Positions 11,601 through 14,600 of a stretch of DNA of 64,000 bases are shown piece after piece. Made by a program: the position numbers. Source of the DNA: Escherichia coli (GTDB lineage: Bacteria > Pseudomonadota > Gammaproteobacteria > Enterobacterales > Enterobacteriaceae). Location: assembly GCF_030013205.1 (NCBI RefSeq), contig NZ_CP122648.1, one strand, 5' to 3'. Every line of letters begins with the position of its first letter. Within the stretch, counting starts at the first letter, position 1.

Positions 11601-14600
11601 CGAGGCTGTCATCGGGATATTCTTGAACTGGCGGATACGGTAAGTGAGCTGCGCCCCATCAAACATGCGTTTGATGCCGGTGTTAAGGCGCAAATAGGGA
11701 TTGATTATTAAGGGAAAGCACCTCAAAAGATCGTCTCTTGAGGTGCTAATTTTAGATACTGAATGGCTTAATTAGCCACGGCAAAATTAAGAAGAACTTG
11801 AATTTTATTCAAGTGTGCGGGATATTCCATATCATTATCCGCATTGACGTCTTCAATAAACATTATTAATTCAGTGATCAAATCATTAGCATCTTCATAA
11901 CTAATACCAGTCAGTTCTGGTGACGTTTGCGAGCCATAATTAATTGTCAGATTATTCATTACCGACAAAACCAGAATAAAATATTTGTGACATATATCGC
12001 AAGTTGTTCGGTTTCCTAAGGCATAGTACAGCATATTGAGCAATGCCAGTATTCGTCGATTTTGCACATCGTTCATAATGACCTCCTATAACATAACTCC
12101 GCTGGCAATAAGAAGTTTTGCCAGCTCCTCTGACGCCTGAAGACCACTAATAACTTGAGCACGCAGGATCTCATTCCTACGCTCTAAATCCGCTTTTGAA
12201 AGAGATTTATTAGAGTATAAATCTTGTAGATGATTTCCTTTATCCATGAAGGCATTAATAGCTTGTATTGCTGGAGCCGCCGGATCAGATGAACGCAATC
12301 TGCTTTCATTAAGATTAATTACTGCACTCAAAAATTCCTGCCTGCTCTTTAATGTCTTAAATTCTATATTTTTAGTATTTGCCCGGGCCTTATTATAGTA
12401 ATAAAAATTATTACTGATGTTCACAAAATTATTCCGATCCATTTGCTGCTGTTTCGTTGCTATATCATCAAGTAAATTTTGTAAATTTCTTTGAAGTCGT
12501 GGCCAGTCACTACCTACCGCTTTACCAACATTTTCTGATTTAATCTTCTCTTTGTATAATCCATTGAAATATTGAACTAAATCTTTAACAGCCACAGCTG
12601 ACTTAGTCAGTTTTTCACCTTCTGAAAAGCCAAGTAGTTTTTGGGCGTTGTTTGCGTGATCGAGCGCCTGATTAAGTAATATAATTTGTTTACTATCCTC
12701 AACATCCATACCCACCGTCAACAACTCCACATAGGAGCTCATACTGTTAACGATCTCAAGTGAAGCCAGTAGTTTTTGTTTTTCTGTTGTTGCCAATTGA
12801 ATTTTAGTAATATCTTTATACGATGTTTTGCCCCCTTTCTCTGATTGCAAACATAAGGACTCTTTATTAGTATTATTTTCCATAATCGTTTCATAATCAG
12901 GTCGCAATGCACAATCCGGATTAGTCGCATAAAAATTAACAAGGAAGTTTTCACGAGAAGCATAGTATTGTTTAAAGAAACTTGCATTCGCCGCAACCGC
13001 CTTGTTACCCGCAGTAATAACAGTTTCAGCTTGTTCATTCTTCAATGCTTCGGTTGCACAACCTGAAAGCATTAACAGCGATAGAAATATTCCACTATAT
13101 CTAATCATAACCCACCTCTTGACGTTGAGTTTATCTCAGATAATTAAATAGTAATGTGGCTATTTCCGGGTATTATTCATAAGCAAGTATGAAATTAAAT
13201 TAAAATACTGCGACTATTTATCATGCTTCAAATGAAGAAAAGGCCCCGCAGGGCCTTTATTTTATACTTATCTTAAATTAACCGTTATTATTACGTCCGC
13301 CAGAACGGCGACCACCGCTCACCTGGCTATGACGTTTCACCGCACGACGAATCTGATTCGCCTTCATACGACGACGGTCTTTTTCTACAGCGACTTTAGA
13401 GCTGGTTTCTGGCGGTAGCTCCACCAGTTCGCGCAGATAGTTAGTCTGGGCGAGGTCCAGCTCCGTCCAGCCACCGCGTGGCAGACCTTTTGGCAGTGGG
13501 ATATCACCGTAACGAACACGAATCAGGCGGCTTACCTGCACACCAACCGCTTCCCAAAGACGACGAACTTCACGGTTACGGCCTTCGGTCAGAGTAACGT
13601 TGTACCACTGGTTGATCCCTTCGCCGCCGCTGAACTTGATGGTTTTAAAGGCTGCCGGACCATCTTCCAACTGCACGCCACGACTCAAATCACGCAGTTT
13701 CGCGTCGTCAACCTGACCAAATACACGCACGGCATATTCACGTTCAACTTCACGGCTTGGGTGCATTAAACGGTTTGCCAGTTCACCATCGGTGGTGAAC
13801 AGCAGCAGACCACAGGTATTAACGTCCAGGCGACCCACGGCAATCCAGCGTGCGCCACGCAGTTTTGGCAGACGGTCAAACACCGTTGGACGTCCTTCCG
13901 GATCGTTACGGGTACACAACTCACCTTCCGGTTTGTAATAGGCCAGAACGCGACAAATTTGTTCAGCGGACTCACGTACCGAAATCAGGTGACCATCGAT
14001 ACGGATTTTCAATCCAGGGGTAACTTCAACGCGATCGCCGAGTTTAGCAATTTTGCCATCAACACTCACACGACCGGCTTCAATAATAGATTCGATTTCA
14101 CGGCGAGAGCCGTGGCCGGCACGCGCCAGCACTTTCTGTAGCTTTTCGCTCATAGAGCTTCCTTTTGGTGTCGCCTTCCCAGGCGTCTGATATGCTTTTG
14201 TGCAACAGTGAGTCAGAACTTACATCTGACTCACTGATAGTAAAGTCTGTTTGAACTCTTCAGGCCTTAAGTACTTAAGTAAACGACTCGACGTTTATCG
14301 GCCTGGCTTTGAGGCGCAACATACTACACTATCTTTATGGTTAAAGCTTGTTTCGATTAACATCAGCTTAATTACCAGCCACCACCGCCTCCGACACCCG
14401 CCCCGCCGCCAGCACCACCACCGGAATAACTTCGCCCCAACAAACTGGTATTGGCCCCCAGGCTCAGGTGCATCTGTAATGAAAACAAAACGCCACTACG
14501 GGCAATTTCCGGGGCGCTAACAGCCGCTGTGAGTGACGGCGTGATACGTGCTGCCCATTCTTTTCCAAGGTTTGCCGAGACTGCCCAACCTAGCAACGCG

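Follow-up and report, generated by a model that had tools for sequence, protein, structure and literature searches.

A 64,000-nucleotide stretch of the Escherichia coli contig NZ_CP122648.1 (assembly GCF_030013205.1), referred to below as the window, carries two adjoining genes between cobO (also called btuR) and rluB, which encode a lipoprotein of 340 amino acids (aa) and an acidic partner of 102 aa. The pair is a real, self-contained two-gene operon of an undescribed family. It is present in about a quarter of E. coli genomes, and its E. coli alleles, judged by their synonymous sites, are at least as old as the split between Escherichia and Citrobacter. Tentatively, at a probability of roughly 0.3, we rank first the reading that the pair is an envelope binding or blocking (exclusion) module under balancing selection.

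Sequence comparisons indicate that the pair is real, as both genes are conserved with nonsynonymous divergence (dN) well below synonymous divergence (dS), and the two recur together in distant taxa. At a guanine-plus-cytosine (GC) content of 36%, stops are expected in about 7% of codons, and by this calculation a 340-codon open reading frame would arise by chance with a probability of about 2e-11 and a 102-codon frame with a probability of about 6e-4.

Organization of the locus

Measured from stop codon to stop codon (11711 on the cobO/btuR side, 13278 on the rluB side), the spacer between the two core genes is window positions 11712-13277, 1566 bp at 36% GC. The cassette has a GC content of 0.36, and 0.30-0.33 at third codon positions (GC3), against 0.50-0.57 and a GC3 of 0.48 for the flanking genes. 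In the K-12 strain MG1655 the rluB-btuR spacer is only 39 bp long, with a hairpin of its own, and none of it is retained in the window, where it is replaced whole. The initial annotation of this stretch had described an AT-rich two-gene cassette that K-12 lacks, with an LSGC lipoprotein and a small acidic protein 9 nt apart between two bracketing hairpins, and had given rluB and btuR as adjacent in K-12; every one of these descriptive details holds. The features of the locus are as follows.

11121..11711, plus strand: cobO/btuR, the left flanking core gene, outside the cassette (open reading frame and annotation)
11717..11747: bidirectional terminator-like hairpin common to the convergent cobO and small gene, arms of 14 nt, 93% complementary
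11768..12076, minus strand: gene of the small partner, 102 aa
12077..12088, minus strand: junction of the two genes with its 9-nt spacer (direct sequence reading)
12086..13108, minus strand: lipoprotein gene, 340 aa
12794..12913, minus strand: lipoprotein codons 66-105, from Cys66 through Cys86 to the segment after it, where alleles vary most and differ by indels
12893..13277, minus strand: promoter region and lipoprotein codons 1-72, near-identical across allele classes (dS 0.02)
13202..13231, minus strand: candidate sigma-70 promoter TTGAAG-18 nt-TATTTT, proposed from reading the sequence and below promoter-scan thresholds
13239..13258: rluB terminator hairpin of 8 pairs, 5 of them G-C, followed by a T-run, -14.4 kcal/mol
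13278..14153, minus strand: rluB, the right flanking core gene, outside the cassette (open reading frame and annotation)

On the minus strand the hairpin at 11717-11747 folds at -21.1 kcal/mol (z -5.5), and its plus-strand value is -18. At the other end, the terminator of rluB insulates the cassette from rluB read-through, and a promoter scan of the rluB-side spacer returned no promoter passing its thresholds. Both genes have a strong Shine-Dalgarno sequence, AAGAGGTGGGTT-ATG and TAGGAGGTCATT-ATG. Translational coupling of the small gene to the lipoprotein gene is likely, because the GGAGG of the second (12082-12086) overlaps the TAG stop codon of the first (12086-12088). An Rfam scan of the cassette found no RNA family.

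Lipoprotein and partner protein

The 340-aa protein begins MIRYSGIFLSLLMLSGC. Its n-region contains an arginine, and after a hydrophobic core comes the lipobox L-S-G-C (MIRYSGIFLSLLMLSG-C17), whose cysteine stands in a lipobox-like context in all 39 family members. At the level of sequence this establishes the protein as a lipoprotein. Cys17 is followed by alanine at +2 and threonine at +3. Under the Lol sorting rule of Enterobacteria, aspartate at +2 leads to retention in the inner membrane, and lipoproteins without it go to the outer membrane. Because its +2 residue is alanine and not aspartate, the protein is probably lipidated and sorted to the outer membrane.

The only invariant residues of the 39-member alignment are the lipobox Cys17, Cys66, Cys86 and Tyr126. 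Cys66 and Cys86 probably form a periplasmic disulfide. A set of invariant residues made up of cysteines and one tyrosine, kept in hosts of low to high GC content, favours a disulfide-bonded lipoprotein with a binding or structural role and speaks against an enzyme. Apart from one short beta hairpin near the two cysteines, the mature lipoprotein is predicted to be all-helical. The structure model as a whole, made from a 12-sequence alignment, is unreliable, with a predicted local distance difference test score (pLDDT) of 45.9, and Foldseek searches with it returned family members only, including two oddly named relatives ('TolC family' and 'PilJ/NarX-like'). A u-spanin-like membrane anchor at the C-terminus was considered and rejected, as inspection shows a hydrophobic tail of no more than about 12 residues.

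The small protein has an isoelectric point of 4.4, with neither a signal peptide nor a transmembrane segment. It is predicted with fair confidence to be a four-helix bundle (pLDDT 82.8, predicted template modelling score 0.78), and its best-conserved part is the first 16 residues. Two other identities were examined and set aside. The protein contains C26-D-I-C29-H30, the CxxCH motif of a c-type cytochrome, but it lacks a signal peptide, and the motif is kept only in the Escherichia/Citrobacter group and is missing from the other partners. Its NRRILALL... segment might be taken for a twin-arginine (Tat) signal, but that helix belongs to the predicted bundle and its hydropathy is low. Fold searches returned generic four-helix bundles. 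Among the Foldseek matches were RPW8 and MLKL proteins at E-values of 0.8-4 and identities of 6-12%, with HeLo-like, AtMLKL3, MLA13 and HET-S proteins lower in the list. Because designed helical bundles score equally, this likeness is a lead and not evidence of homology.

Both proteins had been called unrecognised in the initial annotation, and the database searches bear this out. Neither protein, nor any of the 39 relatives, has a significant match in Pfam, and no toxin or immunity domain was found there. NCBIfam, PADLOC and PHROGs returned nothing significant for the pair. Sequence profiles of the PDB gave coiled-coil noise only and no relative of the small protein. TraT, Bor, Cor and Llp show no profile homology to the lipoprotein or the 39 relatives in Pfam, NCBIfam or PHROGs. 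Neither Colicin_Pyocin nor any other immunity family matches the small protein in Pfam, and the PDB profiles likewise give no such relative. Literature searches with protein accessions, CFT073 locus tags, flanking gene names and lists of defence hotspots turned up nothing on either protein or on the locus.

Distribution and allele classes

The state of the rluB-cobO junction was counted in 5426 complete E. coli genomes.

K-12-type empty junction: 4183 genomes, 77%
Window's version (class I), full length, mostly at least 95% identity: 775 genomes, 14%
Second, strongly diverged version (class III group): 460 genomes, 8.5%

The pair is thus a presence/absence polymorphism carried by about 23% of the genomes; it is not at the junction in most E. 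coli and is not core. Core status including K-12, or strong homology to a well-characterised family, would have refuted the initial annotation, and neither was found. Its carriers include the uropathogenic strain 536 and swine backgrounds of Stx2e Shiga-toxin-producing E. coli (STEC). About 460 genomes match the window's sequence only over the promoter region and codons 1-72. In some genomes IS1 occupies the rluB-cobO spacer (L003, 3288-3985), and in others it interrupts or abuts the cassette (hits H15 and H20). In draft assemblies many copies of the lipoprotein gene are 'partial' and break off at contig ends, a pattern that IS insertions in this AT-rich DNA could produce.

In the second version (L001) the two proteins are 333 and 102 aa long and are 64% and 72% identical to those of the window. 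Protein clusters from Escherichia contain at least three allele classes.

Class I: the window, strain 536 and an E. albertii allele with 84% identity over the variable part
Class II: P0004
Class III: P0005, P0007 and P0009

The classes are 90-100% identical before residue 72 of the lipoprotein. Beyond it they are 54-61% identical to each other, roughly the same distance that separates each from the Citrobacter alleles (47-55%). Synonymous sites beyond codon 72 are saturated between classes (proportion of synonymous differences, pS, 0.58-0.75; dN 0.30-0.38). As a yardstick, rluB of E. coli and Citrobacter differ with a pS of 0.50 and a dN of 0.013. A recombination breakpoint lies at about codon 72 of the lipoprotein gene.

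The two genes diverge in parallel, with identities of 98/97, 86/85, 66/76, 64/72 and 55/58-62% (lipoprotein/small protein). Within the lipoprotein, variability peaks at residues 71-105, that is, in the Cys66...Cys86 segment and just after it, where indels occur, and again at residues 186-250. Column entropy in the stretch of residues 66-105 is 1.2-1.6 bits, against 0.2-0.5 in the conserved helices. The conserved parts are the N-terminal helix, three internal helices and the C-terminus.

The left flank has a divergence of its own. The 3' half of cobO (window 11150-11711, the last ~600 bp) is 5-9% divergent from K-12, from the uropathogenic E. coli (UPEC) strain 536 and from the second-allele strain L001, and yciK and sohB, just upstream of cobO, are 98-100% identical. 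Across the 5426 genomes, identity over the last 300 bp of cobO is bimodal, with 4203 genomes at 90-95% and 1219 at 95% or more. A divergent cobO haplotype tied to the cassette was considered and rejected, as cobO differs equally between cassette-bearing strains.

Origin of the cassette

E. albertii, E. whittamii and Citrobacter sp. ANG330 all have the pair between rluB and cobO as well, which indicates that the locus is old at this position. A degenerate-pattern scan of about 100,000 species-representative genomes found it only in E. albertii and E. whittamii, plus one contaminant contig. That contig (L020, NZ_JAFCGY010000166.1), 423 bp long and of low coverage, belongs to a Mesorhizobium caraganae assembly; it matches the 3' end of the lipoprotein gene of E. 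coli at 100% identity and is almost certainly E. coli contamination.

No boundary repeats, terminal repeats or target-site duplication were found at the cassette edges, and there is no recombinase gene (integrase or transposase) between cobO and rluB. The cassette was therefore rejected as a transposable element or an integrative island, having neither repeats nor a recombinase and replacing the K-12 spacer entirely. The shared site, the lack of duplication or repeats and the age of the alleles make it at least as likely that the empty state of K-12 is a loss, as it may well be. Alternatively, homologous recombination in the flanking DNA may carry the pair from one lineage to another. To call the cassette a 'recent horizontal insertion' does not describe it best, and the horizontal acquisition suggested in the initial annotation is too simple for this copy; the wider family is mobile in that one relative is the cargo of a P2-like prophage, as described below.

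The wider family

Word-indexed searches found relatives only in Escherichia and Citrobacter. A full hidden Markov model scan of 1.84 billion representative proteins gave 58 matches, about 35 of them full-length (325-357 aa), in hosts of low to very high GC content. The lipoproteins thus form a rare and wide family of 325-357 aa which is undescribed.

A small gene follows the lipoprotein gene at all four of the Escherichia/Citrobacter loci and at eight of the nine loci outside that site, where it encodes 96-108 aa. The pair sizes are listed here, the last line being the exception; a further pair, that of Citrobacter sp. ANG330, has 331 + 105 aa.

L005-L007: 334 + 96 aa; a DDE transposase adjoins (L005)
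L009: 357 + 96 aa; P2-like prophage
L012: 326 + 100 aa
L013/L014: 347 + 107 aa; VapBC, Fic and a Y1 transposase nearby
L015/L016: 345 + 105 aa
L017: 348 + 108 aa
L024: 330 + 98 aa; an H-NS paralogue adjoins
L008: 338 + 269 aa; the 269-aa partner is hydrophobic and apparently membrane-spanning (read from its translation)

For one further relative, L023, the contig is too short to show the downstream gene. Across subfamilies the small partners are alike in size, helicity and the missing export signal, and are almost unalignable. A third conserved gene was considered and rejected, as the neighbours seen in three loci, of 413, 427 and 431 aa, show no homology to one another. At L024, the pair has an H-NS-family gene (5297-5698) 1.3 kb upstream, on the other strand, and this gene may bear on the silencing of AT-rich cargo.

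In Buttiauxella agrestis the pair, at 34-40% GC, lies within a P2-like prophage of 55-61% GC, with gene S (tail completion) on one side and gene V (baseplate) on the other. P2-like phages have three recognised moron regions, and the S-V interval is one of them (PMC6823313). Because this copy sits in a recognised P2 moron site, the pair is mobile cargo in at least one case. It resembles the orf30-type morons of P2, found between tail genes S and V, in occupying exactly that site as low-GC cargo. The window's copy, in contrast, is chromosomal, with the core genes rluB and cobO on either side and no phage genes adjoining.

Three plasmid matches were rejected as chromosomal fragments or mislabelled chromosomes. 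The PLSDB entries CP054249.1 (L021) and CP054253.1 (strain STO_Bone4) and the 4.9-Mb 'plasmid' NZ_CP134663.1 are mislabelled chromosomal sequence with this locus (hits H61 and H62). CP054249.1 also carries the trp operon, and its copy of the pair looks error-ridden, with an apparent identity of 42.7%.

Possible functions

In the exclusion reading, the lipoprotein would be a non-enzymatic protein that binds or blocks at the envelope, and an external antagonist would impose balancing or diversifying selection on its variable surfaces. This antagonist would most likely be a phage, through exclusion from entry or from its receptor, or possibly a bacteriocin. The cytoplasmic four-helix partner probably co-evolves with the lipoprotein, and would act as a helper for its production or control. 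This reading is ranked first because of the lipoprotein nature of the larger protein, its hypervariable loop bracketed by cysteines, the ancient alleles, the frequent absence of the pair and the moron copy.

Exclusion or surface lipoproteins carried on morons or plasmids include Llp of T5, Cor of phi80 and N15, Bor of lambda and TraT of F. The present gene is like these in being an accessory, AT-rich, strain-variable gene for an outer-membrane-type lipoprotein, with one relative in a recognised moron site. It differs from Llp, Cor and Bor in that its product is 4-5 times larger and predicted to be all-helical, and from all four in having no sequence relationship to them, in nearly always having a cytoplasmic partner, and in that the E. 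coli copy lies outside a prophage. The E. coli loci fliC and O-antigen are polymorphic surface loci with conserved ends and a variable middle. The pair shares with them a fixed site, deep classes older than the species, conserved termini and breakpoints at the edges, and differs from them in belonging to no known family, in having two genes only and in that 'absent' is its commonest allele.

Several results weigh against exclusion. The family is absent from 50,697 sequenced phages searched with tblastn, from PHROGs and from IMG/VR (four subfamily queries), and because these collections are negative, phage carriage rests on a single prophage. In PADLOC-DB v2 (library of 2023) the best E-value of the lipoprotein is 0.075, and the small protein has no match. 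The locus is not among the E. coli defence hotspots of PMC10121019, and no defence genes adjoin it in the window. Because the lipoprotein model is poor, there is no fold-based support. The dN/dS of about 0.28 can be accounted for by relaxed purifying selection acting on old alleles, with no need for positive selection. No homology ties the pair to phage or bacteriocin resistance, and it is not obvious what a purely periplasmic blocker would need a cytoplasmic partner for. Confidence in exclusion is low because phage databases lack the family, no defence genes adjoin the locus and the partner is unexplained.

A general accessory function of the envelope, involving no conflict, is a somewhat less probable account. 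The lipoprotein would then be structural, tethering or stress-related, the small protein a regulator or an export-competence chaperone, and the alleles old lineages shuffled by recombination. The housekeeping chromosomal contexts in E. coli, Citrobacter and L024 fit this account, as do the lack of mobile-element boundaries, the purifying selection just mentioned and the negative phage collections. It sits poorly with the 77% of E. coli which do without the pair, with a within-species divergence that is extreme next to the flanking genes, and with the focus of variability in the cysteine-bracketed loop. One copy is, moreover, a prophage moron, and some contexts are mobile or accessory, with transposase, VapBC and Fic genes nearby.

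We consider it rather doubtful that the lipoprotein is instead a surface-exposed, host-facing factor for serum resistance, adhesion or antigenicity, kept polymorphic by host immunity, which would be analogous to the moron-borne Bor or the plasmid-borne TraT. A predicted outer-membrane lipoprotein with a hypervariable disulfide loop would suit such a role, as would moron carriage and the occurrence in extraintestinal pathogenic E. coli (the UPEC strain 536) and swine Stx2e STEC backgrounds. Distant members, however, come from high-GC, apparently environmental metagenome bacteria, where host immunity is no general pressure; Pfam gives no match to the Bor or TraT families, and the cytoplasmic partner is again left without a role.

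A toxin/immunity or effector/immunity pair, with the lipoprotein as toxin and the small acidic protein as its cognate immunity protein, is unlikely. Comparable pairs are the nuclease colicins E with their Im proteins and the lipoprotein toxin/immunity pair SitA-SitI of Myxococcus. The likeness to them lies in the order of a large and then a small gene, the tight coupling, the small, acidic, helical second protein and the parallel divergence of both genes across alleles, to which a conserved N-terminus with a more variable remainder may be added. The pair differs from them in having no toxin or immunity domains in Pfam and in its whole-length homology. Alleles and distant members align end to end, including a conserved C-terminus, with no swapped toxin domains, and a polymorphic toxin/immunity module was rejected on these grounds. 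There are no conserved residues of a catalytic type, since only three cysteines and one tyrosine are invariant among 39 sequences. The putative immunity protein has no export signal and is cytoplasmic, whereas the lipoprotein is exported, and in none of the loci examined does a secretion system or other delivery machinery adjoin the pair. The effector/immunity role raised in the initial annotation is disfavoured by these observations.

Two readings would give the small protein a part in cell death, and both seem to us quite improbable. In the first, resembling abortive infection, the lipoprotein would sense damage or phage entry, and the four-helix bundle would be a membrane-disrupting executioner like the CC, RPW8, MLKL and HeLo domains. 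RPW8 and MLKL proteins do appear in the Foldseek list, and conservation in the small protein is highest in the N-terminal helix, as it is in the MADA-type alpha-1 helix of plant coiled-coil (CC) nucleotide-binding leucine-rich repeat receptors. The sequence identity to these cell-death domains, however, is 6-12%, with no match in Pfam or other profiles; the small protein is acidic, and the partners can hardly be aligned across subfamilies. We also know of no signalling route from an outer-membrane lipoprotein to a cytoplasmic protein, which counts against this reading. The second, to which we give slightly less credence still, is an envelope-linked immunity module in which the polymorphic lipoprotein would detect or block an antagonist, and the co-evolving bundle, a bacterial counterpart of CC, RPW8, MLKL and HeLo domains, would act from within to kill the cell or arrest it; allele classes older than the species would then be explained by negative frequency-dependent selection.

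Least probable of all is a decaying, functionless remnant of an old insertion, since the AT-richness and possible silencing, the IS1 in the locus of some genomes and the lack of the pair in most E. coli stand against intact full-length reading frames with strong ribosome-binding sites in more than 1200 genomes and in sister species, a dN well below dS, and a pair architecture kept across very distant taxa.

Other features of the window

Positions 26355-49380 are a lambdoid prophage remnant inserted in ompW, of which 26355-26480 is a partial copy and 48742-49380 an intact one. Its cargo includes the Stx2e genes (30571-31806), three tRNA genes (31897-32150), a Q antiterminator, hokD/sok, IS481, dicABC and an integrase. 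A SIR2-family gene (38590-39549, minus strand) lies beside IS481 and sok in this remnant and may be phage-defence cargo. The window differs from the swine isolate K_EC180 at 3 positions in its first 50,000 bases. Within yciQ, which encodes a DUF2207 protein (DUF, domain of unknown function), a 150-bp segment (14478-14627) is 78.7% identical to K-12 and 536, and its neighbouring segments are 94-98% identical. In the ymiC-yciX region, positions 3777-3979 (minus strand) strongly match the enterobacterial small RNA STnc180 (201.8 bits).

Significance

Roughly a quarter of E. coli genomes carry the pair, yet no database places either protein in a family. Many such unexplained islets exist, and nothing here yet indicates a specific new mechanism. 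This islet is above the average in its deep alleles at a fixed site and in a lipoprotein-plus-partner architecture kept over phyla-level ranges of GC content. A fixed site shared with sister species, a majority 'absent' allele, genus-old classes, a homogenised promoter and N-terminus and variability in a cysteine loop are typical of the interface with phage, bacteriocin or host. The pair is most fittingly classed with accessory envelope lipoproteins or morons, as a two-component variant that belongs to no named family. A phenotype, if found, would name a new lipoprotein family with an obligate small partner, ranging from Enterobacteria to high-GC bacteria.

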